Source of the DNA: an uncultured Acidobacteriaceae bacterium
Lineage (GTDB): Bacteria; Acidobacteriota; Terriglobia; Terriglobales; Acidobacteriaceae
Length of the DNA stretch: 64,000 bases
Reading direction: 5' to 3'
NCBI GenBank assembly: GCA_963772045.1
Contig: CAVYWC010000007.1
Coordinates: 438,023 to 502,022, forward strand
A program made the translations under genes and the position numbers. Below, in pieces: positions 29,761 to 51,958 of the stretch (position 1 is the stretch's first letter; the number at the start of each line of letters is the position of its first letter). The notes under the pieces are model-generated. The model did no database searches. It was not told where the DNA came from and saw nothing but the letters and a program-made list of their open reading frames with translations.

Positions 29761-30594
29761 TCACGCGGCGGTGTCGACCAGTTCTTCGCCCACCGCGACA
29801 TTCCCCTCGGTTCTCATCCGCAATCGGTACCACAGTACAATCGCCACCAGTGAGAACATGAAGATAATCGTCGAGATGGCGTTGATTTCCGGGGTGATGC
29901 CGCGACGCAGACGCCCCCAGATTTCCAGCGGCAGGGTGTTGTCGCGGCCGATCAGGAAAAAGCTCACCGCAATTTCGTCCATCGATAAAGTGAATATCAG
30001 CAGTGCCGCACCGACGATCGGCAGCTTGAGATTCGGAACCGTCACCTGCCAGAACGTCTGCCAATAATTCGCGCCCAGGTCGAGCGAGGCTTCCTCTTGC
30101 GAACGATCGAGTTTCTGCAAGCCCGCAAAGATTTCCGTCGTTGCTACCGAGATTAAAGCCGTACCGTGGCCCAGCGTGATGGTGAGCAAGCTGAGTCTGA
30201 AGCTCATCAGGTCGAACAACATGAGCAGAGAAAGGCCGGTGATGATTCCTGGCAAGATTAACGGCAGGAGCACTAGTCGACGAAATAACGCTTTACCCGG
30301 GAACTGCGCGCGATCGAGCGCGAGCGCCGCAGGAACCCCGAAGGCAAGAGCAATCACAATGGCCGCCGAGGCAACTTCCAGGCTGTTGAAAACAGAATCC
30401 CAGATAGGCCCATCGCTGAACAGTATGCGATACCAATTCAAGGTGAGATGATGCGGCGGGAATCCTCCCACCCCTTCGCCGTTGAAGGAATACACGATCA
30501 GGACCAACATCGGTAAGTACAAGAATGCAAATATAACAACGGCATAGCTGAATAACCAGCGCGACCGCGGGGCGGAATCTGCGTCAACGCTCAT
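29761..30594 (-). CDS. ABC transporter permease (PotC-like)
   Basis: ATGA overlap with the upstream permease. Six TM helices and an EAA-type loop (LDRSQEEASLDLGANYWQTFWQVTVP). Confidence 0.85.
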   Translation of the reverse strand: MSVDADSAPRSRWLFSYAVVIFAFLYLPMLVLIVYSFNGEGVGGFPPHHLTLNWYRILFSDGPIWDSVFNSLEVASAAIVIALAFGVPAALALDRAQFPGKALFRRLVLLPLILPGIITGLSLLMLFDLMSFRLSLLTITLGHGTALISVATTEIFAGLQKLDRSQEEASLDLGANYWQTFWQVTVPNLKLPIVGAALLIFTLSMDEIAVSFFLIGRDNTLPLEIWGRLRRGITPEINAISTIIFMFSLVAIVLWYRLRMRTEGNVAVGEELVDTAA

Positions 30595-31439
30595 GAGAAG
30601 CTCCACTTCTTTTCCAATCGTTCGGAAAAGAAAAGCAGGCCGACAACCAGCAGTAGCATGCAGAACGAGATGGCCGCGCCCAGCGGCCAGTTATACGCCG
30701 CGCCGAAAAGGCTGACCACGACATTGGAGATCATGATGCCGCTCGGACCACCGAGCAGCAATGGAGCCAGGAAATCGCCCAGGCTTAATACGAAAGCGAA
30801 TGTCGCGCCGGCCAACACTCCCGGGATGGATAAGGGAAAGATTACCTTCCAGAATGTCTGCGCCGGAGTGGCGCCGAGATCGTCGGAAGCTTCGACCAGG
30901 TTGCGCGGGATGTGCTCGATCGCGGCGTAAATCGGAAGAAATGTGAATGGCGTGTAGATGTGAGTCAGGGCCAGCACCACGGCAAACGGACTGTAGAGAA
31001 GGAATTCCAGCGGATGGCTCGTCAGGTGCACATACTGCAAGAGCGTATTCAATACGCCGTCTGATCCCAGGATCGTCTTCCACGCATACGCTCTCACCAG
31101 ATAACTGACCCACAGAGGAATGATGACCATCTGGTAGAGCAGGTGCTTGCGCTTTCCGGCGTAAAAAGAAAGGAAGTACGCCAGCGGATATCCGAGCAAA
31201 AGAGAAAACAGCACGACGCGAGCCGCAATCCACATGGAGCGCAACAGCGTTTCCCAGTACACCGGTTTTTGCAGCAGTTCTTTATAGTTTTCGAGAGTCC
31301 ACGAATGCACAATAATCTGCAGGGACGAAACCGACCAGAAGCTGTAGCAGAACATCAGGCTATAGGGCAGTAGGAGAAACACCGCGACCCACGCCAGCGG
31401 CGGGACGGTCACGAGTGTCTTGTAGGCGCGGGAAAACAT
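30591..31439 (-). CDS. ABC transporter permease (PotB-like)
   Basis: Six TM helices and an EAA loop (LVEASDDLGATPAQTFWKVIFP). TGATG overlap with the ATPase gene. Confidence 0.85.
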   Translation of the reverse strand: MFSRAYKTLVTVPPLAWVAVFLLLPYSLMFCYSFWSVSSLQIIVHSWTLENYKELLQKPVYWETLLRSMWIAARVVLFSLLLGYPLAYFLSFYAGKRKHLLYQMVIIPLWVSYLVRAYAWKTILGSDGVLNTLLQYVHLTSHPLEFLLYSPFAVVLALTHIYTPFTFLPIYAAIEHIPRNLVEASDDLGATPAQTFWKVIFPLSIPGVLAGATFAFVLSLGDFLAPLLLGGPSGIMISNVVVSLFGAAYNWPLGAAISFCMLLLVVGLLFFSERLEKKWSFS

Positions 31440-32539
31440 CAGCTTCTTTCTGGAGATTTACGGACAAACACCGCGTCGCCGGGGGAAAACTCAAATTCCA
31501 CATCGCCGCCCGGCATTTTTCCGCTCGCCGTTCTCGCCAGCAGAACCAATCCGTCGCTGCACTGGATCCGAACCAATTCCGTTGCCCCATGAAATGCCTG
31601 GTTGATTACATGACCGCGCATTCGCACCGAATCCGGTGCTGCGGATAAGCCTGCCAGGCGCAATTGCTCCGGTCGCAACGAAAACAGAGCTGGCCCATCG
31701 TCGAGCGAGACCGGCCACGACAACTCTCCGCAGCGCGCCTTGCCGCCGCGTATGTCCACCTTCAGTAGGTTCGTATGTCCAATGAATTGCGCCACGTATG
31801 CCGTTGCCGGACGGCTATAGATCGCGCGAGGCGTTGCCACTTGCTCCAGTTCGCCGGACCGCAGCAGGGCGATGCGGTCCGACATGACCATCGCTTCTTC
31901 CTGATCGTGGGTGACGAACACAAATGTGATTCCGACTTCGCGCTGCAGCGATTTCAATTCAAGCTGCATCTGCCGGCGCAGGTTGGCATCGAGCGCGGAT
32001 AGAGGTTCATCGAGCAGAAGCAGCTTTGGACGATTCACCAGCGCCCGCGCCAGTGCGACGCGTTGCTGCTGTCCTCCGCTGATTTGCGAGGGCTTCTTCT
32101 TCGCGTGGTCGCTCATCTTTACTTTTTCGAGGGCGTCAGCGACGCGTCGTGTGATCTCAGCTGCAGGTCGCTTAGCCACGCGCAATCCATAGGCCACGTT
32201 TTCTTCGACCGCGAGATGAGGAAATAGCGCATAACTTTGGAAGACCGTGTTCACCGGACGGAGATAGGGCGGAAGAGAATCCAGCCGCTCGCCGCCCATC
32301 CAAAGCTCGCCTGACGACGCACTTTCGAATCCGGCAATGATCCGCAGCAGCGTGGTTTTTCCGGATCCGCTTTCCCCCAGAATGGTGAGAAATTCGGCTT
32401 CCGTGATTTCAAGAGAAATATCGCGCAGCACCGTGTTCGGCCCGAAGTTCTTGGCGACGTGGCGAATGCTGAGCAGCACGGGTTTTGTCGCGAGATCGTT
32501 GCTCACCGCTGCAACTACCGGAACAGTTGAGGAAATCAT
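31439..32539 (-). CDS. ABC transporter ATP-binding protein (PotA-like, with C-terminal TOBE-like domain)
   Basis: Walker A GESGSGKTT, signature LSGGQQQRVALARAL, Walker B LLLLDEPLSALD. The start is uncertain (ATG 32539 or TTG 32560). Confidence 0.9.
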   Translation of the reverse strand: MISSTVPVVAAVSNDLATKPVLLSIRHVAKNFGPNTVLRDISLEITEAEFLTILGESGSGKTTLLRIIAGFESASSGELWMGGERLDSLPPYLRPVNTVFQSYALFPHLAVEENVAYGLRVAKRPAAEITRRVADALEKVKMSDHAKKKPSQISGGQQQRVALARALVNRPKLLLLDEPLSALDANLRRQMQLELKSLQREVGITFVFVTHDQEEAMVMSDRIALLRSGELEQVATPRAIYSRPATAYVAQFIGHTNLLKVDIRGGKARCGELSWPVSLDDGPALFSLRPEQLRLAGLSAAPDSVRMRGHVINQAFHGATELVRIQCSDGLVLLARTASGKMPGGDVEFEFSPGDAVFVRKSPERS

Positions 32540-32567
32540 AAGAGCTTCTTGAAGCCGCAATGCACCA

Positions 32568-33635
32568 CTACTGCGCCGCCTTCACCTCGTTCCAGATCTC
32601 GTTGTACTTGGCGCGACGCGGCACGTTCTGCCAGAAATAAATATGCTTCTGATAATTGTCGACATCGTCCAGGTGAAATGTCTTCACTTCGTCCGCTGAC
32701 ATGAACTGCGCCGCTTCCGGATTCGCCGGAACATAATGCGTTTTGTCGGTCACTAGTTTCTGCGTCTTGGGCTCGACCATATACTCCAAGAACTTGTAGG
32801 CAAGATCTTTGTTTTCGCTTCCCGCTGTGATCATGAGGTGATCGATCCAGCCCGTCGTATTTTCTTTGGGAATGGTCTCGCCCACGGGAAAATTAACCTT
32901 CTTCAGATCTGCGGTGTTGAGCGGCCATCCCATGGCGATCACGATTTCGTGATTCTCAAACAGGTTGGTCAGTTCGCCGCCGGTCGACCAGATTTTGCGA
33001 ATGTTGGGTTTTAACTCCAGCAATTTCTTCTTCACCGCATCGAGTTGGTCGTCACTCAGGTTGTAGAGCTGCGATGGATCGGGTTTGTCGAATCCAAGGA
33101 CCTGCGCCGCCATGTAGACAGTCGACAGATCATCCCAGACCGAAACTTTGCCTTTGTATTTCGGATCCCAGAACACGCCCCAAGATTCCGGAGGCTGTTT
33201 GAATGCGGTCGTGTCGTAAATGATCGGATTCGGTCCCCACATGAAGGGCACGCCGTACACTTGGCCATTGACGCGCACCAGGGGCAGAGAAGTGAGTTGG
33301 GGAGAAAGTTGGCTGTAGCTGGGAATCTTGGATAGATCGAGAGGCGCCGCCAAGCCTGCCGTTGCGATCGATGTCGCCACATCGCTCGACGGTGAAATGA
33401 TGTCGTAATTTCCTGCGCTTCCTCCGCGCAGCTTGGCAACCAGTTCATCACTCGAGCCCATGTACGACGCGGAAACTTTGCAGTGATTCTGCTGTTCGAA
33501 GGCGTACACGAAGGAGGGATCAGCATAGCCCTCCCAAACCAGCAGGTTGAGAGCTGGAGTCTTTTTTGCGCACGATCCAGTCAACAACAGTAACGCCAGC
33601 GCTGTAGACAGCAGGCATACTCGCCGCCAATTCAT
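32568..33635 (-). CDS. Periplasmic polyamine-type solute-binding lipoprotein (PotD/PotF-like)
   Basis: Lipoprotein signal MNWRRVCLLSTALALLLLTGSC. PotD-family pattern (LLVWEGYADP..., WGPNPIIYD..., MGWPLN). Confidence 0.8.
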   Translation of the reverse strand: MNWRRVCLLSTALALLLLTGSCAKKTPALNLLVWEGYADPSFVYAFEQQNHCKVSASYMGSSDELVAKLRGGSAGNYDIISPSSDVATSIATAGLAAPLDLSKIPSYSQLSPQLTSLPLVRVNGQVYGVPFMWGPNPIIYDTTAFKQPPESWGVFWDPKYKGKVSVWDDLSTVYMAAQVLGFDKPDPSQLYNLSDDQLDAVKKKLLELKPNIRKIWSTGGELTNLFENHEIVIAMGWPLNTADLKKVNFPVGETIPKENTTGWIDHLMITAGSENKDLAYKFLEYMVEPKTQKLVTDKTHYVPANPEAAQFMSADEVKTFHLDDVDNYQKHIYFWQNVPRRAKYNEIWNEVKAAQ

Positions 33636-33690
33636 TCTTCCTCCAACGCGGGATCTACCAATTCGCAACCGTCATTAGTAAGTACTCAAC

Positions 33691-34491
33691 TCAGAACGTG
33701 GGTGGTGTATTCACCCATAACACGAATGTCTCTTTGCGGCCGGGATTTTTCCAACGGTGCGGCGTTGAACTATCGAAATAAAAACTGTCGCCGGGCCTGA
33801 GCCGGTATTGTTCGCCGTCCAGAGCAATGTCCAGTTCGCCGCGCAAAACATAAATGAATTCCTCTCCTTCATGCGTATAAGGCTCGCCGCTGCCTGCCTC
33901 GGGCTTGATTCGGAACAGATGCGGCTCCATGACGGTATTTCCCCAGGCCAGCAATTCCATCTGCACGCCTTCGCCGGCCCCCAGGACCTTACGCTGTGCG
34001 GGCCGCACGTGTCGGCTGCAAGTTCCGTTCGCCTCGAAAAAATCCAGGATGTTCGTCTTATAGAAGCGTGCCAGTTTGCGCAGCGTGCCCACGGATCCGC
34101 TCATCTGCGATCGTTCCAGCGCGCTGAGAAAGCCCACAGAAATTCCCACGGCGCGCGACACCTCTGCCAGGGAAAGTTTTCGCCCCACTCGCAGTTGCCG
34201 CAGGCGCGCCCCAATGGCTCCGGCATTTCCATCGCGCGCCGGATGGGTTTTGCCTTCGCGCCTGAGCAACTGCACAATGGCCGCGGCGTTGAGTCCTCGC
34301 ACCTTCCGCAGGAAGCGCGTCTGCTTTAATAATTTGAGATCTTCCGCCGTATATAGCCGGTACTTGCTCTCCGTCCGAAGTGGACGCGTCAGCCCAAGGC
34401 TCTCCCAGGACCGGATCACGGACGGCGATACGCCGATTTTTTTCGCTACGTCTCCGATCTTCAAGTAAGGTTCAGCTTTGGCTGCTTTCAT
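33691..34491 (-). CDS. Three-module transcriptional regulator: MerR-type HTH + XRE-type HTH + cupin sensor
   Basis: MerR-type module: YLKIGDVAKKIGVSPSVIRSWESLGL. XRE-type module: LRQLRVGRKLSLAEVSRAVGISVGFLSALERSQ. Cupin module: HTHEGEEFIYVLRGELDIALDGEQYRLRPGDSFYFDSSTPHRW. It is the first gene of the Pot-like operon. Confidence 0.8.
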   Translation of the reverse strand: MKAAKAEPYLKIGDVAKKIGVSPSVIRSWESLGLTRPLRTESKYRLYTAEDLKLLKQTRFLRKVRGLNAAAIVQLLRREGKTHPARDGNAGAIGARLRQLRVGRKLSLAEVSRAVGISVGFLSALERSQMSGSVGTLRKLARFYKTNILDFFEANGTCSRHVRPAQRKVLGAGEGVQMELLAWGNTVMEPHLFRIKPEAGSGEPYTHEGEEFIYVLRGELDIALDGEQYRLRPGDSFYFDSSTPHRWKNPGRKETFVLWVNTPPTF

Positions 34492-34557: not shown

Positions 34558-34607
34558 TTGACAGCCCCCGCCCCACTTCTCTAACCTTGCGGGATTATAG
34601 CAAGGTT
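34558..34607 (+). promoter_or_regulatory. Candidate promoter (TTGACA-N18-TAACCT) overlapped by the perfect inverted repeat AACCTTGC-N9-GCAAGGTT (candidate operator)
   Basis: Located in the 210-bp divergent region between the MerR/XRE/cupin regulator and the TBDR. The inverted repeat spans 34583-34607. The long spacer resembles MerR-type promoters. Confidence 0.35.
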
Positions 34608-34701
34608 GCGGGCGGATACAAGCAGTCGTTTTTCCAGGCTTCATACTCTCGGGCATTCTAGAGAATCATTCAAAAATCTCACGAGAACCCTTGGAGGTTC
34701 C

Positions 34702-37700
34702 ATGCTGTCAGCGCGTTTCCGCTGGAATCTGCTGTGTCCCGTAGCAGCCGTTTGTCTGCTGATGCCCACGCTCCTGCTCGCGCAGGGCGCGACAGGGCGC
34801 ATTCTTGGTCGTGTTGCCGATCCCTCGGGCGCCGTGCTTGGCGGGGTAAAGGTTACGCTGACCAATCAAGCGACCGGCGTCAGCCGTGACGCCGAGACCA
34901 ACGCCACCGGAGACTATACTTTCGTCAATGTCGCCCCAGGGACTTACCAGGCGAGCTTTGAGCTGACTGGGTTCAAGAAAAACCTGCAGAAGAACGTTAC
35001 CGTCGACGTGAACCAGGTGGTCACGTTAAATTCAGTTCTGCAAATCGGCGGCACGCAGGAAGTCGTCGACGTCACTTCGGAAGCTCCCCAGGTCGATACC
35101 ACCAGCACGCAGCTCGGCGCCGTCATCAACGACCGCTCCGTCAACGAACTGCCGCTGAACTCCCGCGACACCTATCAGTTCCTGCAACTGCAGCCCGGAG
35201 TGCAGGCGCAGCTCGGAAACGGCAATGGCAGCTTGTTCTATGGCTCGCAGGATACCGGTTCAGTCTCGGTGAACGGCGGCCGCACTCGCGCCAACAACTT
35301 CAGCGTGAACGGTGGCGATGCCAATGATCAATTCGTAAATCTACCCACCGTCCAACCCACGCCGGACAGCGTAGAAGAATTTCGCGTGCTGACCAACACG
35401 TTCGACGCAGAGTACGGGCGCAACTCGGGCTCCGTGGTGAACGTGATCACCAAGTCGGGCACGAACGGATTGCACGGCGACATCTATGAATATTTCCGCA
35501 ACACGGTTCTGGATGCGAAAAACTATTTCGATATCGCCGGCCGTCCGCAGTGGAATCAGAACCAGTATGGGGGCACGCTCGGCGGCCCCATTGTGAAAGA
35601 TCGTACGTTCTACTTCGTGTCTTATGAAGGACGGCGAGTTCGCGAAGGCATTACCGGCCAGCAGGTGAACGTGCCGACAACCGCGCAGAGAGGTGGAGAT
35701 TTTTCGGGTGTCGGCGGCTTCGCGGGCGGCGGGGGGATCTACGATACGTTTGTGGCGAATGCTCTGGATGGCCGTCCCGGTTGCGATACTGCATTAGGCC
35801 TACCTAGCGGCGGTATTGCAAATCTGCCAGCCGATCCGAACACAGGTCTGATTGACTGGTCGACCGTTTTTCCGAGCGGCGTAATCCCTTCTGCTTGCCA
35901 GGATCCGGTCGCCGCCAACTACATGAACTACATCCCAGCGGCCGCCGTGACGATTCCCGTGAGCACTGATAACGAAGATCAATTTACAGTCCGCTTCGAT
36001 CACAAAATCAATGATCACCAGCAATTCACCGCCTACTATTACTTCAACGATCTCCGCCAGATCCAGCCTTTCAACGAGTTTGAGAATGCCGGTGCCAATG
36101 TTCCCGGGTTCGGAAATTTCAACAATAACCGCTTTCAACAGTGGAACCTCACGCATGACTGGACGATTACAAATTCAATCGTGAATGAAGCGCACTTCAC
36201 CTACATGCGCGAGGGACAGCTTGGATTTCTGAAACCGCAAAATACCAGTGCGGTCACGTCCACATGCAGCGGAACAGCAACGGCTGTTTGTTTTAACGGA
36301 ACCTCCGATTCCAGTGCGATCAACACTTTGATTGCAGGTTCTGGCATTGCCGCCGGAAAAGCTGGTATTACACCCGGTCTGCCCGCGAATCTGACCGGAG
36401 TTCCTTTCATCAACATCGGTGGCGGAGCGATTCTGGGCAACAATTCCGAGGGAATTCTTCCGCAGGTCGGCAACAGCTTCCAATGGTCAGACAGTTTGAC
36501 CTGGGTCAAAGGCACGCACACCATGAAGTTCGGCATCGACATCCGGCGTCAGCGTTTCGATCAGTACTACTATTACGACATTAACGGTTCGTATGGATTC
36601 GACAATACCGGGCCGAACGCGATCCTGCCAGGAGATGGGGATAGCTACGCGGAATTCCTTCTCGGACTCGCAGACTCGTACGGGCAGGGCTCCGGCCAGA
36701 GAGAGGATGTTCGCGGCACATCCGTTTATCCGTTTGTGGAAGACAGCTGGAAGATCAAGCCGAATCTGACCCTGAATTACGGCTTGCGATGGGAACTCGA
36801 CACTCCACCGACCGATATCGCCGGACACGTTGAGACGTACCGGCCCGGACAGAACTCCACGGTCTACCCTTGTGGGCTCTCCGCTGCGGGAGCGAATGAG
36901 CTCGGTGTCAGCCCGGGCACAACCTGCGCCGCAGCCGGCGTGCAGCCAACGGGATTAGTTGTGCCGGGGGACCAGGGCGTTCCGGCGAGCATGACTAGCA
37001 CTTATTACAAGGCATTCGCGCCACGCATCGGACTTGCCTGGAGTCCGGGGAGTTCCGGAAAAACCAGCATTCGCGCCGGCTGGGGCCTTTTCTATAACCC
37101 GATTGAGGAACTGGTGATGGCGCAATTCGGCGCCGAGCCGCCCTTTGGCGGCAGTTCCTATATCTACGATACCTTCTTCAACACGCCGTTCGTCTACCAG
37201 GCGGGAGGCACAATCGCTCCAAATCCCTTCAACGGGATTCTCACACCCACGAAGAGCCAGCCCGTCGACTACTCACTGTTCCGCCCGCTCCTGCTCTACG
37301 GCGAATTTCAGCCGCATCTGCGGACGCAATACACGGCGCAATACAACCTGACGATTCAGCACCAATTCGCAAAAGATCTTATGTTGCAGGTTGGATACGT
37401 TGGTTCGCAGGGACATCGTCTGCTGGCTTCGCATGACATCAATCCTTCGAATCCCCAGACGTGTCTCGATATCGCGAGCATCGCCGGCCTGAATGCGGCG
37501 AATGTGACTTCCTATGGAAGCCCATACTCCTGTGGCCCCACGGTCGAGGATTCGCAGTGGAGCGTGACGATCCCCACCGGTTTCCAGTTTCACATGCCGA
37601 ACGGAAGCATGGTTGCGGGGACGGGACAGACCATCAATCTGGTCGGGCTGCGACCGTACTCCTCGCCCAATTGCGATTCAACCTTGCCTGCGGGCACGTT

Positions 37701-38609: not shown

Positions 38610-39992
38610 ATGTACCCCGAACTAGATAAAGAACTCGCCACTTTCGAGCGGCGAACGCCCAAGTCCGCCGAAGCCCACAAGAAAAATCTCAAACGCATCC
38701 CTCTTGGCGTGGCCAGCAACTACCGCGCCTACGATCCCTGGCCGATCTTCGTGAAAGAAGCCAGTGGCAGCAAGTTCCGCGATCTCGATGGCAACGAATA
38801 CATCGACCACAATCTATGTTTCGGCGCCATCATGGCCGGGCACTGCCACCCCGCGGTCATGAAGGCCGTCGAAAAACGGCTCTCCACCGGAACCATGTTC
38901 GGCATGCCCCATGACATGGAATGGGAACTCGCAGAAGAAATCTGCAACCGTTTCCCCATCGAGATGTGCCGCTTCGGCAACAGCGGCACCGAAGCGACCA
39001 TGCATGCCATTCGCCTTGCCCGTGCCGCAACCGGGCGCGACAAGATCGTGAAATTCGAGGGTGCTTATCACGGCTTACATGACAGCGCGCTGGTTAGTGT
39101 GAAGCCGCACGCGCCGGAATTCGGCGATGTGCACAATCCCACCGCGGTTCCCGGCGGGCTTGGCGTACCAAAATCCGCCGTGGCCAACGTTCTCATTGCG
39201 ACTTTCAACGATCTCGTGACCGTGGAGCGACGCTTTAAAGAAAATCCCGGCGAGATTGCCGCGATCATTCTCGAACCTATCCTGATGAACGTCGGACTTT
39301 GCTTGCCGCAACCGGGATTCCTGCAAGGCCTGCGCGACATTTGCGACAAAAATGGCGCGCTGTTGATCTTCGATGAAGTTAAGACCGGCTGCAAACTGGG
39401 ATGGGGAGGAGCCAGCGAATATTTCGGAGTAACACCCGATATGATCTGTCTCGCCAAGTCGATCGGCGGTGGTCTGCCCCTCGCGGCGTTTGGCGCGCAT
39501 GAATCCGTCATGGATTTGATCTCGCAGCACAAGGTCTTCCACGGCGGCACCTACAACACGAATCCGGTTTCGATGGCCGCGGGCCTCGCCACCTTCCATC
39601 ACGTCCTCACGCGCGAGAATTACGCGCACGTCGAAAAACTGAGCAAGAAGCTGGCCGACGGTTACCGCAAGACCATCGCGAAAGTCGGCTTGCAAGGCTA
39701 CATCGCGCAAGCCGGGGCCAACGGCGCGTTGATGTTCTATCCCAAGGAAATCACGAACTATCGCGACTGGACCACCATAGACGTCGATCTGTGGCGTCAT
39801 TACTGGTTCGGTATGGTGAACCGCGGCGTCATGGCTCAGCCCTACTGGTGGGACGAGCAGTGGACGATCTCGGTGCAGCACACCGACGCCGACATCGACA
39901 AGCATCTCGCCGCATTTGACGACATTGCCGAATCGCTGGCCAAGGCGCAGCAGGAGCGCGGCGCAGGCGTGCCTGCCGAAGTCGCACATTAG
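38610..39992 (+). CDS. Class III PLP aminotransferase, glutamate-1-semialdehyde-aminomutase-like
   Basis: The motifs NSGTEATMHAIRLAR, LIFDEVKTG and CLAKSIGGGLPLAAFG (PLP Lys) are present. ATG 38610 follows GGAG. Confidence 0.8.
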   Translation: MYPELDKELATFERRTPKSAEAHKKNLKRIPLGVASNYRAYDPWPIFVKEASGSKFRDLDGNEYIDHNLCFGAIMAGHCHPAVMKAVEKRLSTGTMFGMPHDMEWELAEEICNRFPIEMCRFGNSGTEATMHAIRLARAATGRDKIVKFEGAYHGLHDSALVSVKPHAPEFGDVHNPTAVPGGLGVPKSAVANVLIATFNDLVTVERRFKENPGEIAAIILEPILMNVGLCLPQPGFLQGLRDICDKNGALLIFDEVKTGCKLGWGGASEYFGVTPDMICLAKSIGGGLPLAAFGAHESVMDLISQHKVFHGGTYNTNPVSMAAGLATFHHVLTRENYAHVEKLSKKLADGYRKTIAKVGLQGYIAQAGANGALMFYPKEITNYRDWTTIDVDLWRHYWFGMVNRGVMAQPYWWDEQWTISVQHTDADIDKHLAAFDDIAESLAKAQQERGAGVPAEVAH

Positions 39993-41609: not shown

Positions 41610-41633
41610 CGGAAGAGATACAGGAGGGCCACG

Positions 41634-43292: not shown

Positions 43293-44654
43293 ATGTCTAC
43301 CATTCAACTCCGCACACCGATTCCAGGCCCGAATTCGAAATCCCTCCACGAGCGCCGCTCGAAAGCCGTGCCCCGCGGGCTTTCTCACGGCACTCCCATT
43401 TACGTTGCCAAAGCTGAAGATGCCTGGCTCGAGGATGTCGACGGCAACCGCTATCTCGATTTCGCCGGCGGCATCGGATGCCTCAACGTCGGTCATCGCC
43501 GCCATGAAGTAGTTGGGGCCGTCAACGGGCAGCTAGAAAAATTCCTGCACACCTGCGTGCAGGTCACGCCGTATGAAAGCTACGTCCGTCTCGCCGAGCG
43601 CATGAACGAGGTCACTCCCGGCAACTTCGCCAAGAAAACCATGTTCGTCAACAGCGGCGCCGAAGCAGTCGAGAATGCCGTGAAGATCGCGCGCGCCCAC
43701 ACCAAGCGCCCGGGCATCATCGCCTTCGAAGACGCGTTCCATGGCCGCACCATGATGACTCTAGCTCTCACTAGCAAAACCCATCCCTACAAAGCCGGAT
43801 TTGCGCCATTCCCGGCCGAAGTCTACCGGGTTCCATTCGCCTATTGTTACCGCTGCTCGTACCACTTGAAATATCCCGAGTGCGATCTGTATTGTGCGCG
43901 TCATCTGGAAGATACGTTCAAGCGCGTGGTCGCCAACGAAGAAGTTGCCGCGGTGATTGCCGAGCCAGTTTTGGGCGAAGGAGGATTTGTCGTCCCTCCC
44001 CCGGACTATTTCAAAGTTCTCATCGACCTTTGCCATCGGCATGGGATTCTCTTCATCGCCGATGAAGTGCAATCCGGTTTTGGCCGCACCGGAGCTCTGT
44101 TTGCCTGCGAACGCTACGGCATCGAACCTGACCTCATCGTCACAGCGAAATCACTCGGCGGGGGCTTGCCACTGGCTGGGGTTACGGGCCGCGCCGAAAT
44201 CATGGACGCGCCGGGCGCCGGCGGCCTGGGCGGAACATTCGCCGGTAACCCGCTTTCCTGCGTGGCGGCTCTGGCAGTTTTGGATTTGTTTGAGCGCGAA
44301 AATTTGCTGGCGCGTGCCAATGAACTCGGCTCGCACTTCCAGCGCCGCGCGCACGAATGGCAACGCCGCTTGCCGATCGTCGGAGATGTGCGCGGCCTCG
44401 GCGCCATGCAAGCGATTGAACTTGTGCAATCGCAGAAAACAAAAGCGCCCGCGGCCGAGGAGACGAAAAAGATCACGCAATACTGCTATGAGCACGGTTT
44501 GATCACAATCACCGCCGGCTCGTACGGAAACGTCATCCGCGCGCTGGTTCCACTGGTGATCACAAGCGAGCAAATGGACGAAGCGCTCGATGTGCTGGAA
44601 GCCGCGCTCGCCAGCGTTTGTGACCAGAAAAACGCAGTGCCGCAATTGGTTTGA
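43293..44654 (+). CDS. gabT: 4-aminobutyrate aminotransferase (class III)
   Basis: N-terminal GabT pattern: AVPRG...DVDGNRYLDFAGGIGCLNVGH. The motifs FIADEVQSGFGRTG and TAKSLGGGLPL (PLP Lys) are present. Confidence 0.75.
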   Translation: MSTIQLRTPIPGPNSKSLHERRSKAVPRGLSHGTPIYVAKAEDAWLEDVDGNRYLDFAGGIGCLNVGHRRHEVVGAVNGQLEKFLHTCVQVTPYESYVRLAERMNEVTPGNFAKKTMFVNSGAEAVENAVKIARAHTKRPGIIAFEDAFHGRTMMTLALTSKTHPYKAGFAPFPAEVYRVPFAYCYRCSYHLKYPECDLYCARHLEDTFKRVVANEEVAAVIAEPVLGEGGFVVPPPDYFKVLIDLCHRHGILFIADEVQSGFGRTGALFACERYGIEPDLIVTAKSLGGGLPLAGVTGRAEIMDAPGAGGLGGTFAGNPLSCVAALAVLDLFERENLLARANELGSHFQRRAHEWQRRLPIVGDVRGLGAMQAIELVQSQKTKAPAAEETKKITQYCYEHGLITITAGSYGNVIRALVPLVITSEQMDEALDVLEAALASVCDQKNAVPQLV

Positions 44655-44829: not shown

Positions 44830-46323
44830 ATGACCACTGTTGCTGCACCTCCCGTTGCTAAGCTGACGAACTACATTAACGGCGAATGGCACAATTCGCA
44901 GGCGTCCGAATGGCGCGACGTCGTGAATCCGGCGACTGGCGAGCTGCTCGCCAGCGTTCCTCTGGGCGACGCCGCCGACGTCAATGCTACCGTCGAAGCC
45001 GCAGCCGCAGCTTTTCCCGAATGGCGCCGCACTCCTCCGGAAGATCGAATCCAGCCGCTCTTCAAGCTCAAGATGTTGCTGGAAGAGCACATTGACGACA
45101 TCGCCCGCATCATCACCATCGAGAACGGCAAGACCTTCGCCGAAGCGAAGGCCGAGATGCGCCGCGCGATCGAGAATGTCGAAGTCGCCTGCGGCATTCC
45201 CATGATGATGCAGGGCTACAACCTCGAAGACGTGGCGCGCGGCATTGATGAAATGATGATCCGCCAGCCGCTCGGCGTAGTCGCGGCTATCGTTCCCTTC
45301 AATTTTCCCGGAATGATCGCATTCTGGTATCTGCCCTACGCGATCGCTACTGGGAATACATTTATTCTGAAGCCGAGCGAGCGCGTGCCGCTGACCATGC
45401 GCTATATCTACGAACTGCTGGGGAAGATCGGACTGCCGAAAGGCGTAGTGAACCTTGTGAACGGCGGCAAAGCCGCAGTCGACGCGTTAATCGATCATCC
45501 CAAAGTTCGCGCCATCAGTTTCGTCGGATCGACACCCGTTGCCCGCTATATCTATGCCCGTTCAGCCGAAAAGGGCAAGCGCTGCCAGTGTCAGGGCGGA
45601 GCGAAGAATCACGTGATCGTTCTCCCCGACGCCGATATGCCCATGGCCACTCAAATCATCAGCGACAGCGCTTTCGGATGCGCCGGCCAGCGTTGTCTGG
45701 CCGTCTCCGTTGCGGTCACGATCGGAGAAGCGCAGAAAACATTTCGCGACTTCATCGCCGATGCGGCTTCAAAACTGAAAGTCGGCTACGGGCTCGAAGA
45801 GGGCGTACACATGGGTCCAGTGATTACGCCGCAGAGTAAAGGGCGCGTCGAGTCGTTAATCGGCATTGGTGAGAAGCAGGGAGCGAAGGTTCTGCTCGAT
45901 GGCCGCAACACGAAAATTCCAAAACACGAATCAGGGAATTTCGTGAAGCCCACGATTCTCGATGACGTCCCTGCGACCAGCGAAATTACCGATACCGAAA
46001 TCTTTGGTCCGGTTCTGAGTCTGGTTCACGCGGATAATCTCGACGAAGGGTTAGCGTTTCTGGAGCGTAGCGCCTACGGAAATCAGGCTTCGCTGTTTAC
46101 ATCCAGCGGATCGGCGGCGCGCCGCTTCCGTTACGAAGCGCCTGCGGGAAATATCGGCATTAACATTGGAGTCGCGGCACCCATGGCCTATTTCCCTTTC
46201 AGCGGTTGGAAGAACAGCTTCTTTGGCGATCTGCACGCCCAGGGCCGAGATGGAATTGACTTCTACACGGATAAGAAAGTCGTTGTCGAACGCTGGGCCA
46301 AAGAGCACAGCAGAAAGTTTTAA
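44830..46323 (+). CDS. mmsA: CoA-acylating methylmalonate/malonate-semialdehyde dehydrogenase
   Basis: ALDH fold with the MmsA-type features NYINGEW, FNFPGMI, QGGAKNH and catalytic CAGQRCLA. The C-terminus is ...VVERW. Confidence 0.7.
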
Positions 46324-46326
46324 TCT

Positions 46327-46379
46327 CACCACGGAGACACGGAGAAGAAAGAAAAGGTTTTCTCTGTGGCTCTGTGGTG
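46327..46379. repeat. 20-bp-stem hairpin CACCACGGAGACACGGAGAA / TTCTCTGTGGCTCTGTGGTG (family C)
   Basis: It starts 4 nt after the mmsA stop, has a 13-nt A-rich loop, and has two G-U wobbles and one mismatch. A half-copy lies at 50718-50739. Confidence 0.6.
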
Positions 46380-46403
46380 AATGATTTTGTACGTGAGGAA
46401 TTT

Positions 46404-47741
46404 ATGACTACAACTGTTGCGAATCCCGCTATGACCGGCCAGGAAATGGTCGATCTCACCAAGAAGTACACTCTTTTCGAGTGGTCTGCCCAATCTAAGG
46501 TCGATCCCATCCCCGTCGCCAAAGCCAAGGGCATTTATTTCTGGACGCCGGAAGGCAAGCGCTTCATCGACTTCAACAGCCAGTTGATGTCCGTTAATAT
46601 CGGCCATGGGGACGAGCGCGTCATCAACGCCATCAAAGAGCAGGCCGAAACGCTCTGCTATGCCAATCCCTTCATGGCGACGGAACCTCGCGCTCGGCTG
46701 GGCGCGAAGCTGGCCGAGATCGCGCCAGGCGACATCGACACCTTCTTCTTCACCAATGGCGGCGCCGAAGCCAACGAAAATGCAATCAAGCTTGCCCGCT
46801 TTTTTACCGGACGCCATAAGATCATGGCGCGCTACCGCTCGTATCACGGTGCGACCGCCGGCAGCATGACCCTTACCGGTGATCCCCGCCGCTGGGCCGC
46901 TGAACCGGGAATTCCGGGAGTGGTCCGTGTGCTCGATCCCTACCACGGCATCGAGCGGGGATGGGAATCCGCCGAAAGTTCGCTGGCAAATATTGAAGAA
47001 ACGATGCAGCTCGAAGGTCCGCAAACCATTGCCGCGTTCATTCTCGAAACAGTGGTCGGCACAAACGGAATTCTCATTCCTCCCGACGGCTACATGCAAG
47101 GCGTGCGCAAACTCTGCGACAAATACGGCATCCTGATGATCGCCGACGAGGTAATGGCCGGATTTGGACGCACTGGCGAGTGGTTCGCCATCGATCACTG
47201 GAAAGTCGTTCCAGACCTGATCTGCATGGCCAAGGGACTGACCGCGAGCTATCTCCCGCTGGGTGCGGTCGGCATGCGGCATCACATCGCGCAGCATTTT
47301 CAGGACAAAGTGTTCTACGGCGGCTTGACTTACAACTCCCATCCCATGGGGTGCGCGGCCGCGCTGGCCACGATTCGCGTGTACGAAGAAGACAAGCTGA
47401 TCGACAACGCGAAGAAAATGGGCGCGATCATGAAGCAACTCGGCGCCGATATGCAGGCCAAGCATCCCTCGGTCGGCGCTGTGCGTTCCATTGGCTTATT
47501 CGGGATTTTCGAACTTGTACGCAACCGCAAGACAAAGCAACCTATGGCACCGTTTAATGGCACCTCCGAGGAAATGACCGCGCTGGGAAAGTTTTTCCGC
47601 GAGCAAGGCTTGTACACGCTGGTGCGCTGGAATACCTTCTTCACCAATCCTCCGCTCTGCATTAGCGAGCAGCAATTGCGAGAGGCTTTTGCAATCATCG
47701 ACAAAGGTTTGGAGATTACCGATCGCGCAGTGAAAGACTAA
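46404..47741 (+). CDS. Class III omega-aminotransferase (beta-alanine/taurine:pyruvate type)
   Basis: GAGGAA RBS. The motifs NGGAEANENAIKLAR, MIADEVMAGFGRTG and CMAKGLTASYLPLGAV (PLP Lys) are present. Confidence 0.8.
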   Translation: MTTTVANPAMTGQEMVDLTKKYTLFEWSAQSKVDPIPVAKAKGIYFWTPEGKRFIDFNSQLMSVNIGHGDERVINAIKEQAETLCYANPFMATEPRARLGAKLAEIAPGDIDTFFFTNGGAEANENAIKLARFFTGRHKIMARYRSYHGATAGSMTLTGDPRRWAAEPGIPGVVRVLDPYHGIERGWESAESSLANIEETMQLEGPQTIAAFILETVVGTNGILIPPDGYMQGVRKLCDKYGILMIADEVMAGFGRTGEWFAIDHWKVVPDLICMAKGLTASYLPLGAVGMRHHIAQHFQDKVFYGGLTYNSHPMGCAAALATIRVYEEDKLIDNAKKMGAIMKQLGADMQAKHPSVGAVRSIGLFGIFELVRNRKTKQPMAPFNGTSEEMTALGKFFREQGLYTLVRWNTFFTNPPLCISEQQLREAFAIIDKGLEITDRAVKD

Positions 47742-48095: not shown

Positions 48096-50696
48096 TTGAA
48101 CAGGATCGCTCGGTGGATCTCTTTCGATTTTTTCCCCCGGTGGGGACGGACTTCGCCCAGGCGATATGCGTTCACGGCTCTAGTCCTCGCGCTTGCGACG
48201 GTGGCGCGTTACGTCCTTGATACTTACGTCGGATTGACTCCTCCGTTTATTTTCTTCTATCCCGCAGTCTTGATTATCAGTTTATTCGCCGGACTCTGGC
48301 CTAGTGTAGTCGCAACATTCTTGTCGGCTGCCATCGCCGAAGTGTTCTTCATCGTCGGGGTCGGCGCACCACTGCTAGACCGTACCCAACAATTTGTGGC
48401 ATCGGCAGTGTTCTGTACCTTGGCGATTTTGACCAGCGCTTTTCTGCATGCGGCGCGTCGGCGGGCCGGGGAGTCGCTTCGCGTGGGAGAAGACCGTTAC
48501 CGCGACCTGGTCGAGCACAGCCAGGACCTGCTCTGCACCCACGATTTGGAAGGAAGGCTGCTGACAGTCAATCCCGCTCCGGCGCGCATTCTGGGCTATT
48601 CGGTTGAAGAGTTACTCAAGATTCCAATGCGCAATTTGATCGTCCCGGAGGGCCGGGAAGAGTTCGAGAGCCTGGAGCGGCTCCGGACTACCGGCCAACC
48701 GGAGCGCGGCCTGCTATGCGTTATCTGCCAGAGCGGAGAAACCAGGATTTGGGAGTACCACAACACCCTGCGCACTGAAGGCGTGGACAAGCCAATCGTG
48801 CGCGGAATGGCGCACGACTTGGCGGATGGAACCGAGAGGCACGAACTGGGCAATGCCGCACCTCTACTCGATCCGCAGGGGAACGTCCGCGGAGCAGTCG
48901 CCGCTGCCGTGGACGTCACGGAGCAGGTCCGGGCCGAAGCCGCGCTGCGCCACAGTGAAGAGCACTTCCGGATTCTGGTGGAACAGGTTCCCAATGGGAT
49001 CTTCATTGCCGATTCTCACGGAACATACCTTGACATGAACTCGGCGGGCGCAGAAATGCTCGGCTATTCGCGGGAGGAGCTTTTGCAGCGCGGCATTCCC
49101 GACGTGGTCGCGGCAGAGGAGCTCCAGCGCGTCCCCGACGAACTGCAAGCGCTGCATGAAAAAGCGATTGTTCGTAGCGAATGGAAGTTCAAGCGCAAAG
49201 ACGGGTCATTTTTCCCCGGCGAGGTGTTCGGTAGAAAGCTGCCCGATGGCCGCTTGCAGGGTATCCTGTGCGACATCACCGATCGCAAGCGGGCAGAGGA
49301 ACTCTTGCGCCAAAATGAAGAACGCTTTCGCGTCGCGCTGAAAGATTCTCCCATCAGCGTTTTCAGCCAGGATCGAGAGCTGCGCTACACCTGGATCTAC
49401 AATGCGCAGTCCCATTGGCAGGAAAATGTCTTGGGGATGACCGACGATGATCTGCTCGGTCCGGACAAAGCTCGGCCATTGCGCGAACTGAAACAAAAAG
49501 TTATCGAAACCGGCGTGGGGGTGCGCGAAGAAGTCATGATTCGCACGAACGGAAAAAGTCTTTCCTTTGACGTCACCATTGAGCCCCTGTTTGATTCCGA
49601 AGGGCGCGTTGTGGGCATCACGGGCGCGGCTATGGATATCGCGCGGCTCCGGGAACTGGCTGACAGCTTGCAAGATGCCAAGGAACAGCTGATCCGCGAA
49701 AAGCGTTACCTCGAAAAAGAGATCGATGCGGAGCTCGGTTTCGAGAGGATTATTGGCCAGAGTCCCGCATTGCGCGAGGTGTTAAAGCAAGCCCGCGTCG
49801 TGGCCTCCACCGATTCGACCGTGTTACTGCTGGGAGAAACCGGCACCGGCAAGGAATTGGTGGCCCGCTCGATCCACGGGCTCAGCTCGCGCCACGATAA
49901 AAGTTTCATCAAGCTCAATTGCGCCGCCGTACCCACCGGCCTCCTGGAAAGCGAACTCTTCGGCCACGAAAAAGGATCATTCACCGGAGCCGTCAGCCAG
50001 AAGGTTGGACGTCTGGAACTCGCCGACAAGGGAACCCTGTTTCTGGACGAAGTCGGCGAATTACCTTTGGAGCTCCAGCCCAAGCTGCTGCGCGTATTAC
50101 AGGACCGCGAATTCGAACGCCTCGGCGGCGTTCGTACTCTGCATGTGGACGTGCGGATTATCTCCGCCACCAATCGCGATTTGAAAGCAGACTTGGCTGC
50201 CAGGAGATTCCGGGAAGATTTGTTTTACCGGCTCAACGTATTTCCCATTGAGTTGCCGCCGCTTCGACAGCGCCCCGACGATATCGCAAAGCTGGTCCAT
50301 CATTTTGTGGCCAAGCATGCTACCCGCATGGGTAAGCACATACAATCCATTCCCGATAAAACCATGAACGTTCTGGGGCAATGGAACTGGCCAGGAAACG
50401 TTCGTGAATTGGAAAACCTGATCGAGCGCATGGTCATTCTGACCAAGGACCGCGTGCTGGCACCCCCGCCTGTGGAATTGTGTTCCCCCCAACTCGCGGC
50501 CGATGACAGTTTCACGGATATGGAGCGCGAACATATTATTCGCGTCTTGCGCGAAACCAACGGTGTGCTTTCCGGCTCCGACGGAGCCGCCACCAGGTTG
50601 GGCGTCAAGCGCACCACGCTGCAGTCGATGCTGAAGCGCTTCAATATCCAGGTGCAGGATTTCCGACGCGGCCCCGCACCCCTCGCTCCTGGCTAA
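48096..50696 (+). CDS. Sigma54-dependent enhancer-binding protein: membrane DUF4118-like + 3 PAS (+1 PAS stub) + AAA+ + Fis-HTH
   Basis: TTG start follows AGGAG. The N-terminal region has 3-4 TM helices, followed by PAS-like segments. AAA+ Walker A is GETGTGKE. The sigma54-contact loop is EKGSFTGA (a GAFTGA variant). The motifs GNVRELEN and a C-terminal HTH (AATRLGVKRTTLQSMLKRF) are present. Confidence 0.85.
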   Translation: MNRIARWISFDFFPRWGRTSPRRYAFTALVLALATVARYVLDTYVGLTPPFIFFYPAVLIISLFAGLWPSVVATFLSAAIAEVFFIVGVGAPLLDRTQQFVASAVFCTLAILTSAFLHAARRRAGESLRVGEDRYRDLVEHSQDLLCTHDLEGRLLTVNPAPARILGYSVEELLKIPMRNLIVPEGREEFESLERLRTTGQPERGLLCVICQSGETRIWEYHNTLRTEGVDKPIVRGMAHDLADGTERHELGNAAPLLDPQGNVRGAVAAAVDVTEQVRAEAALRHSEEHFRILVEQVPNGIFIADSHGTYLDMNSAGAEMLGYSREELLQRGIPDVVAAEELQRVPDELQALHEKAIVRSEWKFKRKDGSFFPGEVFGRKLPDGRLQGILCDITDRKRAEELLRQNEERFRVALKDSPISVFSQDRELRYTWIYNAQSHWQENVLGMTDDDLLGPDKARPLRELKQKVIETGVGVREEVMIRTNGKSLSFDVTIEPLFDSEGRVVGITGAAMDIARLRELADSLQDAKEQLIREKRYLEKEIDAELGFERIIGQSPALREVLKQARVVASTDSTVLLLGETGTGKELVARSIHGLSSRHDKSFIKLNCAAVPTGLLESELFGHEKGSFTGAVSQKVGRLELADKGTLFLDEVGELPLELQPKLLRVLQDREFERLGGVRTLHVDVRIISATNRDLKADLAARRFREDLFYRLNVFPIELPPLRQRPDDIAKLVHHFVAKHATRMGKHIQSIPDKTMNVLGQWNWPGNVRELENLIERMVILTKDRVLAPPPVELCSPQLAADDSFTDMEREHIIRVLRETNGVLSGSDGAATRLGVKRTTLQSMLKRFNIQVQDFRRGPAPLAPG

Positions 50697-50717
50697 CTCC
50701 GAGGTCTTCCGCCGTGT

Positions 50718-50739
50718 AACTCTGTGCCCTCTGTGGTGG
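50718..50739. repeat. Half-copy of family C element (AACTCTGTGCCCTCTGTGGTGG)
   Basis: It matches the right arm of 46360-46379. It lies between the convergent sigma54-activator and dmpA-like genes. Confidence 0.45.
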
Positions 50740-50767
50740 CCTGTGCCTCCGAGAAACCCTGGAATCC

Positions 50768-51958
50768 TCATTTCGCCAGGCGGTTGTACTTCTTGAGCAC
50801 TTCCCGCAGCCGGTCGTGCGGCAATGCGATCACTGTATGCCCATTGATGCCGGTCATCGTTTCCGCGGCGACCATGGCATTCACGACAGCTTCTTCCGTG
50901 GCTTGCACGGTGGCCAGAAAAATCGGATCTAGACCGTCGTTTGGCAGCATGGTCAGCGCATGTAATCCCTTTGGACCCGCCGCCCCCGGATTCGCCGTTG
51001 AAAATGCGATAAAAATATCTCCCGACCCGTCGCCGGAGTAGCTTCCATCCCGGCCCAGACCGAGCGAAACTTTCTTCGCAACCCGCTTCAGTTGCGTGGG
51101 AATCAGCGGCGTGTCGGTGGCCACGACCACGATAATCGAGCCCACATCTTTATCCCAGACCGTGTGTTCCGGAATCTCCCGTCCCACATTGACCCCCGCG
51201 ATCCGCAGTTGCTCGCGCGACCCATAGTTGCATTGCACCAGAACTCCGACCGTGTAATTTCCTTCTTTCGTTTGCACCAGGCGAGACGAAGTGCCGATCC
51301 CGCCCTTAAACTCGTTGCAGATCATGCCCGTGCCGCCACCCACATTGCCTTCCTCGACCGGTCCGGACTGAGCCGAATCGATCGCGTGCCATGCGTTCTC
51401 AGCGGTCACGTGAAATCCATTGATATCGTTCAAATAGCCATCCCAGGTTTCGGCCACCACCGGCAGCGACCACCAATAGCCTTCCATATCCGGCGAGCCG
51501 TGCTTGACCTTCCATGCGATGACCGCATCGCGCACCACCCCCACGCTATGCGTGTTCGTGATCATGACCGGGCCGTCGAGAAATCCGGAATCCTCGACCC
51601 ACGTGGTGCCGGTCATCTCGCCGTTGCCGTTCAATGTGAACCAGGCAGCAAAGACGGCATCTTTCGAATTCTTTCCTCGCGGCTCGATTGCCGTTACTCC
51701 GGTCCGCACCGGGCCTTGACCCACCACCAGTTTGCCCGCGCCGGAAATCAAGGTCGTTTCCCCGACCTCGACCCCGCCCACGTCGGTGATCGCATTGTAC
51801 TTGCCGGGTGTACCGTCAAAGGGAACTCCGAGATCCCGCGCCCGAGGCTTGGTTTGAGCCGACAAACTCAGGGAGAACAGAATCAGCAACACGCTTCCTG
51901 CCGCCATCGAACGAAATCGCTTTCCGACACGGAATCGCTTTCCGAAATCAGCGAACAT
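50768..51958 (-). CDS. Secreted DmpA/BapA-family (Peptidase_S58) aminopeptidase
   Basis: Signal peptide followed by the motifs GVTAI, NGNGEMTG, ITNTHSVG and GGGTGM. A putative autoprocessing site lies at DVG|SIIVVVATDTPL. An alternative start lies at 51907. Confidence 0.8.
   Translation of the reverse strand: MFADFGKRFRVGKRFRSMAAGSVLLILFSLSLSAQTKPRARDLGVPFDGTPGKYNAITDVGGVEVGETTLISGAGKLVVGQGPVRTGVTAIEPRGKNSKDAVFAAWFTLNGNGEMTGTTWVEDSGFLDGPVMITNTHSVGVVRDAVIAWKVKHGSPDMEGYWWSLPVVAETWDGYLNDINGFHVTAENAWHAIDSAQSGPVEEGNVGGGTGMICNEFKGGIGTSSRLVQTKEGNYTVGVLVQCNYGSREQLRIAGVNVGREIPEHTVWDKDVGSIIVVVATDTPLIPTQLKRVAKKVSLGLGRDGSYSGDGSGDIFIAFSTANPGAAGPKGLHALTMLPNDGLDPIFLATVQATEEAVVNAMVAAETMTGINGHTVIALPHDRLREVLKKYNRLAK

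Follow-up and report, generated by a model that had tools for sequence, protein, structure and literature searches.

A putative polyamine and diamine catabolic island in a soil acidobacterium of the Terriglobales, and a promoter element shared with an unlinked spermidine dehydrogenase gene

The DNA analysed here (the window) is a stretch of 64,000 nucleotides from an uncultured Acidobacteriaceae bacterium (assembly GCA_963772045.1, contig CAVYWC010000007.1, positions 438,023 to 502,022, forward strand), whose genome (G000) amounts to 6.16 Mb in 11 contigs. Genes in positions 29761-51958 of the window were called from a listing of open reading frames (ORFs) together with Pfam and NCBIfam scans. 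All 14 genes named in an initial annotation of this region were present as intact ORFs at or near their annotated positions, and they belong to the families to which they had been assigned. Taken together, the evidence presented below makes it fairly probable that the locus is a polyamine and diamine catabolic island of a soil Terriglobales acidobacterium, co-regulated with an unlinked gene for a periplasmic spermidine dehydrogenase (SpdH).

The first five genes lie on the reverse strand. Two of them encode ABC permeases with a BPD_transp_1 domain, for which the top-scoring NCBIfam models were PotC (29761..30606, 169 bits) and PotB (30591..31439, 201 bits), both under their equivalog cut-offs. 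Beside these are genes for a PotA-type polyamine ABC ATPase (31439..32560; ABC_tran and TOBE_2 domains), which scored 364.4 bits with the potA subfamily model TIGR01187 (cut-off 355.6), and for a periplasmic solute-binding protein of the SBP_bac_8 family (32568..33668). The top models for the binding protein, YdcS, PotF and PotD, were all far under their equivalog cut-offs, and the protein matched PotF and PotD, among others, in the PDB at E values of 1e-28 to 1e-36. The fifth gene (33691..34491) encodes a 266-residue regulator with MerR-type and XRE-type helix-turn-helix (HTH) domains and a cupin domain.

Transcribed divergently from these, on the forward strand, is a gene for a 1266-residue outer-membrane protein (OMP) that resembles TonB-dependent receptors (34702..38502). 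It comprises a signal peptide, a CarboxypepD_reg domain (PF13620), a probable divergent plug and a large barrel (PF25183, E 1.5e-194). A six-gene array follows on the same strand. AT1 (38589/38610..39992, the ATG at 38610 being the likely true start) is a class-III aminotransferase related to glutamate-1-semialdehyde 2,1-aminomutase (GSAM). The next genes encode an APC-family permease (40092..41546; AA_permease_2), whose top NCBIfam model, of GadC type, scored 170 bits, far under its cut-off, and ALDH1 (41580..43127), an aldehyde dehydrogenase (ALDH) resembling omega-aminoaldehyde dehydrogenases of the ALDH9/10/betaine aldehyde dehydrogenase (BADH) type. The array is completed by the 4-aminobutyrate:2-oxoglutarate transaminase GabT (43293..44654; 569.3 bits with the equivalog model TIGR00700, cut-off 506.65), an MmsA-type CoA-acylating (methyl)malonate-semialdehyde dehydrogenase (44830..46323; TIGR01722, 561.3 bits against a subfamily cut-off of 448.5) and AT3 (46374..47741), an omega-aminotransferase of the PRK06062 family (NF004718, 528.5 bits against 472).

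The region was compared in eight genomes of the same genus. The 12 genes from potC to AT3 were identical in order and orientation in all eight, with 84-94% identity for the enzymes and just 53-70% for the OMP, and the 12-gene arrangement recurs in further named metagenome-assembled genomes (MAGs) of the Terriglobales, so that the arrangement of the locus is not due to chance. Two genes beyond AT3 had been included in a larger supercluster. One encodes a DUF4118-PAS-sigma54 AAA+-HTH_8 activator, recognised by domain scan (48096..50696, forward strand), and the other a secreted S58 aminopeptidase of the DmpA/BapA type (50768..51958, reverse strand; PF03576, E 8e-116, signal peptide). They were linked to the array in only 2/8 and 4/8 of these genomes, respectively, and conservation did not extend to the flank upstream of the 12 genes. 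The functional unit thus spans 29761-47741, ending with AT3; for this part the supercluster holds, whereas the activator and the aminopeptidase are only variably linked to it. No -24/-12 promoter (TGGCAC-N5-TTGC) was found between 29 and 52 kb, whether up to one mismatch was allowed or the pattern was relaxed, and the counts over the window were those expected by chance. The sigma54 activator, which is not syntenic, is regarded as a neighbour and not as an established member of the system.

Orthologues of AT1 were found in 18 of 301 genomes sampled across the phylum. At 13 distant AT1 loci, an ALDH1 orthologue (63-80% identity) lay close to AT1 in ten, the APC permease stood between AT1 and ALDH1 in six, and GabT was adjacent in four to five. 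A 10-gene version of the locus, consisting of the ABC importer, regulator, OMP, AT1, APC permease, ALDH1 and GabT, is shared by other genera and by named MAGs of the Terriglobales, and MmsA and a further aminotransferase are added to this core in some lineages only. In G088, L049 and L059, MmsA is followed instead by a class-III aminotransferase of the PRK08117 type; what is kept in this slot seems to be a function, not one particular gene. Among AT1 matches of 45% identity or less, from Chloroflexota, Actinomycetota and Thermoplasmata, the ALDH and APC neighbours are lost, and these distant matches are therefore uninformative on function.

Some lineages have additional neighbours. Three genomes of family f36 (G206, G097 and G160) carry the AT1-APC-ALDH1 triad immediately after a gene of the sulfatase family, which carries a TPR fusion in two of them (L036:7205-9475, L037:12459-13952 and L038:7156-9441), and the triad is followed by a CarboxypepD_reg TonB-type OMP; the sulfatase genes were treated as lineage-specific. 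An M28 peptidase with PA and TFR_dimer domains, resembling glutamate carboxypeptidase II, lies directly 3' of the AT1 orthologue in G086 (L039:7781-9913) and is succeeded by a class-III aminotransferase and a thiolase, which makes it a second case of a peptidase beside AT1.

Every intercistronic gap of the six-gene array contains a GC-rich palindromic REP-like element (38532-38555; 40000-40080; 44655-44735; 46330-46375), and none of these has a U-tract on the coding strand. The element 3' of the OMP gene reads CCGGGAGGGC-TTCC-GCCCTCCCGG, and that in the gap between GabT and MmsA is of the GTCATCCTGAGCGAAGG...GTCGAAGGATC type. A generic promoter and terminator scan gave counts equal to or under the shuffled expectation and was uninformative.

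The regulator contains MerR_1 (residues 11-78), HTH_3 (97-149) and Cupin_2 (192-260) domains and is conserved over its full length among relatives. Its C-terminal two thirds are PuuR-like; the score with the PuuR model NF007408 was 72 bits, short of the cut-off of 211, and the MerR domain is an N-terminal addition. The MerR-XRE-cupin architecture is not unique to this locus, as several ESM-Atlas clusters from Acidobacteriota and Pseudomonadota contain it.

A conserved promoter/operator (34558..34609, forward strand) was recognised as a phylogenetic footprint when the divergent intergenic region of ten relatives was aligned; it is seen in eight genus genomes and in other genera. The footprint consists of TTGACA (34558-34563), an 18-nt spacer of variable sequence, TAACCT (34582-34587) and a perfect palindrome, AACCTTGC-N9-GCAAGGTT (34583-34607). 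The palindrome overlaps the -10 of the promoter that serves the receptor and enzyme genes. Of 40 genus genomes, 38 contained the 30-nt promoter/operator core, and the reversed control pattern gave no matches. Searched throughout the genome at two mismatches or fewer, the bare palindrome was not enriched (33 matches against 27 for the control). Only one palindrome match also shares the spacer. This single near-copy of the element, on contig C3, repeats the whole architecture (CTCGACA-N17-TTCTCTAACCTTGCGGACTTATAGTAATGTTG) and lies approximately 200 bp upstream of a gene for an SpdH homologue. The same variant of the element was found directly upstream of SpdH orthologues in three other genomes (G001, G002 and G345), and in G005 a variant on a short contig had no SpdH gene downstream.

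In the proposed mechanism, the MerR-XRE-cupin protein would sit on the palindrome at the -10 and so act as a repressor; it would also bind the copy upstream of spdH, and an amine ligand would release it, as with PuuR. Such a pairing of regulator and operator, with PuuR-like action, is probable and is inferred from adjacency. The regulator-proximal half of the intergenic region (34500-34545) contains a further short palindrome, of the GAAWTTYC type (e.g. GGAATTTCC), followed by a T-run and conserved across the genus, which could be the promoter of the pot operon or a second operator.

Downstream of the element on contig C3 are two tandem genes for FAD proteins of 634 and 692 residues (G000:C3:914251-918085; L130:3811-7786, reverse strand). 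The product of the first (L130:5882-7786, reverse strand) aligned end to end with P. aeruginosa SpdH (PDB 7d9f; E 3.4e-156, residues 16-629 to 3-618), carries the twin-arginine motif RRDFLNG, and has homologues named spermidine dehydrogenase by JGI. The products of SpdH are 1,3-diaminopropane and 4-aminobutyraldehyde when spermidine is the substrate, and spermidine and 3-aminopropanal when it is spermine (PMC9397018, PMC8437039). The enzymes of the cluster would be suited to consume exactly these products. The genome encodes three SpdH paralogues, the tandem pair (54% mutual identity) and a third copy (G000:C1:208927-210870), with genes for a hybrid histidine kinase/response regulator and an M13 peptidase among their neighbours. 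The cluster-type promoter/operator stands upstream of the first tandem gene only, and it was not found upstream of the third paralogue.

The distribution of SpdH followed that of AT1. In the 301-genome phylum sample, SpdH was present in 11 of 18 AT1-positive genomes and in 22 of 283 AT1-negative genomes (odds ratio 19, Fisher p 1e-7), a test that overstates independence because the genomes are related and roughly six family-level lineages contribute. It had been set beforehand that clusters bearing MmsA were expected in genomes with SpdH and clusters lacking MmsA were not. All eight clusters with MmsA were in an SpdH-bearing genome, so that this direction of the prediction fully held, and SpdH was not found in the genomes of four of the six clusters without MmsA.

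Eight class-III aminotransferases are encoded in the genome, and three of them (AT1, GabT and AT3) lie inside the locus, which bears out the number first proposed. The other five are HemL, a second GSAM-like paralogue, an enzyme of the AcOAT family, ArgD and ornithine aminotransferase. With these copies elsewhere, a biosynthetic role of the locus aminotransferases was rejected; in particular, ornithine or acetylornithine biosynthesis, the alternative that the initial annotation had named, is excluded because ArgD and ornithine aminotransferase are encoded outside the locus. AT1 was also rejected as HemL, since it scored 393 bits with the HemL equivalog TIGR00713 (cut-off 527.3) and the true HemL, at 603 bits, is on contig C10. 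The second GSAM-like paralogue (G000:C6:556078-557370; L002:1486-2850, reverse strand) scored 401 bits with TIGR00713, lacks the DEQWT motif described below and is neither HemL nor a member of the AT1 clade.

No PatA/SpuC orthologue was found in the genome or the locus: AT1 scored 149 bits with NF008570 (cut-off 612), and AT3 matched the SpuC-like structure 9j4z only at E 1e-67. AT1 is approximately 36-40% identical to GSAMs, shares their fold and keeps the pyridoxal phosphate (PLP) lysine, the N-terminal Ser/Arg motif and the equivalent of GSAM Arg46. The clade of AT1 is marked by a DEQWT motif, and the enzyme has seven inserted residues in the gating-loop region. Because AT1 lies near an ALDH1 orthologue at ten of the 13 distant loci, its product is predicted to be an aldehyde, and AT1 is likely to be a transaminase of diamines (putrescine or diaminopropane) that replaces PatA/SpuC. 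No literature linking GSAM-like aminotransferases with putrescine in Acidobacteria was found.

The models that ranked best for ALDH1 were BADH (TIGR01804, 561 bits against a cut-off of 668.6) and aminobutyraldehyde dehydrogenase (ABALDH; PRK13473, 520 bits against 615), and its best PDB matches were BADH and plant aminoaldehyde dehydrogenases (AMADH), with KauB (6b4r) at E 3e-121. The active-site pocket was read from an alignment to spinach BADH (SoBADH, 4a0m). ALDH1 conserves E103, Y160, W167 and W456 of SoBADH, has Ile in place of W285 and also has Ile at position 441; we take E103, W167 and W285 to be cation-binding pocket residues. Residues Y160 and W456 of SoBADH form the pocket for the ammonium group, and Ile441 marks omega-aminoaldehyde oxidisers that are inactive on betaine aldehyde (PMC4046141). 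The conserved Glu/Tyr/Trp/Trp pocket and the Ile at 441 favour a cationic aminoaldehyde over succinate semialdehyde as the substrate of ALDH1.

The absence of a dedicated succinate-semialdehyde dehydrogenase (SSADH, GabD) had been remarked upon. This holds for the cluster, where no SSADH was found, and no gene of the genome passed TIGR01780, but an unlinked gene on contig C5 scored 514 bits with the SSADH model NF006916 (cut-off 521) and is a plausible candidate for the apparently missing GabD. AT3 is proposed to be a beta-alanine transaminase. It was also considered as a taurine aminotransferase; taurine is an unlikely substrate because no gene of the genome passed the cut-off for Xsc.

Description of the OMP as a TonB-dependent receptor was not supported by the Pfam Plug model itself, which gave no match to the protein even at E<=1 and also missed it in a genome-wide search, but it finds support in homology. 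Residues 110-260 aligned over their full length, by tblastn, to approximately 50 paralogues in the genome (E 1e-13 to 1e-30), of which 14 pass the Plug cut-off in that segment, and by this transitive homology the OMP is probably a protein of the TonB-dependent-receptor type with a divergent plug. The approximately 50 paralogues of this CarboxypepD_reg/plug/large-barrel class score mostly around or under the Plug cut-off, so that the Plug model under-detects this acidobacterial family. The OMP had no match among PDB sequences, and a single-sequence AlphaFold model of its N-terminus was unusable (pLDDT 38).

An OMP of the same class is beside AT1 in several families in differing arrangements: in Terriglobales it lies upstream and diverges from the regulator, in family f36 it is found downstream of ALDH1, and in G086 and G051 it diverges from AT1. 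As such OMP genes account for only about 1% of the genome, the recurrence is beyond chance. No TonB-dependent polyamine transporter was found in the literature. The combination of two uptake systems with an outer-membrane receptor had been described as unusual. Two inner-membrane systems are ordinary for polyamines, E. coli having the transporters PotABCD, PotFGHI, PuuP, PlaP and PotE, and it is the outer-membrane receptor that is the genuinely unusual part of the locus.

These features can be combined into a route for which we infer all substrates and the direction of transport. The TonB-dependent-type receptor would admit spermidine, spermine or diamines across the outer membrane to the periplasm, where SpdH, exported by the Tat pathway, would cleave spermidine to 1,3-diaminopropane and 4-aminobutanal. 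The PotABCD-like ABC importer and the APC permease would then import diamines and the products of cleavage. In the cytoplasm, AT1 would turn a terminal amine into an aldehyde, in place of PatA/SpuC, and ALDH1 would yield GABA or beta-alanine. GabT would convert GABA to succinate semialdehyde, with an unlinked SSADH completing this branch to succinate, and AT3 would convert beta-alanine to malonate semialdehyde, from which MmsA would form acetyl-CoA. The two routes originally drawn through the locus, from putrescine through 4-aminobutanal and GABA to succinate semialdehyde and from diaminopropane or spermidine through 3-aminopropanal, beta-alanine and malonate semialdehyde to acetyl-CoA, fit the enzyme set and gain support from the near-copy of the operator upstream of spdH, the pocket of ALDH1, the biosynthetic copies elsewhere and the MmsA branch that tracks SpdH.

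A more elaborate scheme, which we put forward only tentatively, is a three-compartment system for scavenging polyamines. It would unite the TonB-type receptor, the periplasmic SpdH and a diamine:oxo-acid transaminase of the GSAM-like DEQWT clade, with MerR-XRE-cupin control of all of them through one palindromic operator.

Several observations weigh against a polyamine and diamine catabolic island with this control. Only about 5 of 41 genus genomes carried the element upstream of spdH at two mismatches or fewer, none was found ahead of the SpdH genes of G219, G198 and G088, and two of the six clusters without MmsA were accompanied by SpdH, which leaves the second direction of the prediction imperfect. 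Among the enzymes, ALDH1 is under every equivalog cut-off, the best PDB match of AT3 is taurine:2-oxoglutarate aminotransferase (6jix, E 3e-114), and the cluster has a gap at SSADH. AT1 keeps the Arg of GSAMs, with an acidic residue where GSAM has Glu406, has no characterised close relative and may possess an aminomutase-like or carboxylate-directed activity. A strong hairpin between the OMP gene and AT1 (38532-38555) makes their co-transcription uncertain. Finally, the sequencing runs listed with the window stretch were of soil-metagenome DNA only, with no RNA runs among them.

The most likely rival is a locus for GABA and other omega-amino acids in place of polyamines. The APC permease, whose best family is of the GadC type, would import GABA or a homologue, GabT and/or AT1 would make the semialdehyde, ALDH1 would itself be the SSADH, and MmsA and AT3 would handle imported beta-alanine or beta-aminoisobutyrate. 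That GabT passes its equivalog cut-off, that the cluster has no other SSADH and the genome no gene over TIGR01780, and that AT1 keeps the GSAM Arg, which we take to bind the substrate carboxylate, are all consistent with such a locus. ALDH1, however, has the cation pocket and scores higher with the BADH and ABALDH models than with SSADH models, and a separate SSADH close to its cut-off is present on contig C5. The PotA-type importer inside the conserved unit and the promoter element common to spdH likewise point away from GABA, and we consider this alternative unlikely.

A module for beta-amino acids and beta-peptides is considerably less likely still. In this case the secreted DmpA/BapA enzyme would free beta-amino acids, AT1 would be a beta-transaminase of the MesAT/VpAT type, and the products would feed MmsA. 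The aminopeptidase is intact and matched DmpA (PDB 1b65, E 2e-105) and BapA (3n2w, E 1e-98); its Gly-Ser autoprocessing site is conserved, a GS in the query aligning with G249-S250 of DmpA, which we take to be the position of cleavage. Besides its linkage in half of the congeners, it adjoins the array in G088. Known beta-transaminases are GSAM-like, and AT1 matches two of their structures (2yku and 4ao9), but at 170-190 bits as compared with approximately 300 bits to GSAM. Beta-transaminases moreover give beta-keto acids and not aldehydes, yet AT1 is ALDH-linked at ten of 13 loci; DmpA is missing from the locus in the other half of the congeners and from the 10-gene core of other genera, and its gene has no copy of the shared operator. 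As a variably linked neighbour of the island, DmpA may feed beta-alanine or D-amino acids into it.

A chance juxtaposition of housekeeping or biosynthetic genes for heme, arginine/ornithine and taurine, with no common substrate, is very improbable: the broad NCBIfam GSAM subfamily model, at 418 bits (cut-off 398), does call AT1 a glutamate-1-semialdehyde 2,1-aminomutase, and the nearest solved relative of AT3 is a taurine aminotransferase, but this explanation is largely refuted by the gene order kept across genera, with a conserved operator in the divergent promoter, and by the paralogue inventory, in which the genes for HemL (603 bits), ArgD and ornithine aminotransferase lie outside the locus and no Xsc is over its cut-off.

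The reaction logic of the polyamine and diamine catabolic island proposed here is the same as that of polyamine catabolism in P. aeruginosa, which involves SpdH, SpuC, KauB/PauC, BauA-BauC and GabT-GabD (PMC9397018). As in P. aeruginosa, the genome has a full-length SpdH homologue, an aminoaldehyde dehydrogenase, GabT, an MmsA/BauC-type dehydrogenase and a class-III aminotransferase of the beta-alanine type. Unlike P. aeruginosa, the first diamine aminotransferase is probably GSAM-like and not SpuC/PatA, the regulator is of the MerR, XRE and cupin type, and the genes are grouped with a Pot-type importer, an APC permease and a TonB-type receptor under one divergent promoter; GabD is unlinked, and SpdH is unlinked but shares the cis-element.

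The putrescine transaminase pathway of E. coli (PatA/YgjG, PatD/YdcW, PuuR and PuuP) likewise shares with the locus a YdcS-like binding protein with an ABC importer, an ALDH of the aminobutyraldehyde type, a PuuR-like regulator with XRE and cupin domains, an APC-family permease and a downstream GabT. In E. coli, the gene for PatD/YdcW adjoins ydcSTUV. The locus differs in that its matches to the Pot (other than the PotA subfamily TIGR01187), YdcS and PuuR models are far under the equivalog cut-offs, in that it has no PatA orthologue, and in the addition of a MerR domain, an outer-membrane receptor and a branch through beta-alanine.

Individual proteins show likenesses and differences of the same kind. 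AT1 has the fold, the PLP lysine and the Ser/Arg motif of the GSAM-like enzymes (HemL, GntE, beta-transaminases and D-phenylglycine aminotransferase), and is set apart from them by the DEQWT motif, the gating-loop insertion and its catabolic genomic partners. The OMP has the N-terminal CarboxypepD_reg domain, a plug-like segment and the very large barrel of SusC-like/CarboxypepD_reg TonB-dependent transporters, and differs from SusC-like transporters in that it has no SusD partner, is not matched directly by the Plug model and stands in a setting of amine catabolism.

Polyamines are abundant nitrogen-rich compounds of soil and decaying biomass, and Acidobacteria are dominant and poorly characterised soil bacteria. 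The chemistry proposed for the island is ordinary, being known from Pseudomonas and E. coli, and the variant would consist of the GSAM-like first aminotransferase, the integrated TonB-type receptor and the operator shared with spdH. As the reactions of SpdH, aminoaldehyde dehydrogenase, GabT, beta-alanine transaminase and MmsA are textbook chemistry, the value of the finding lies in annotation and ecology and not in a new mechanism. If the proposal is correct, it would assign a function to a clade of GSAM-like aminotransferases that automatic pipelines mislabel as HemL, and would point to the first outer-membrane route of the TonB-dependent type for polyamine uptake. It would also provide a testable operator-regulator pair that ties the unlinked SpdH to the cytoplasmic pathway.

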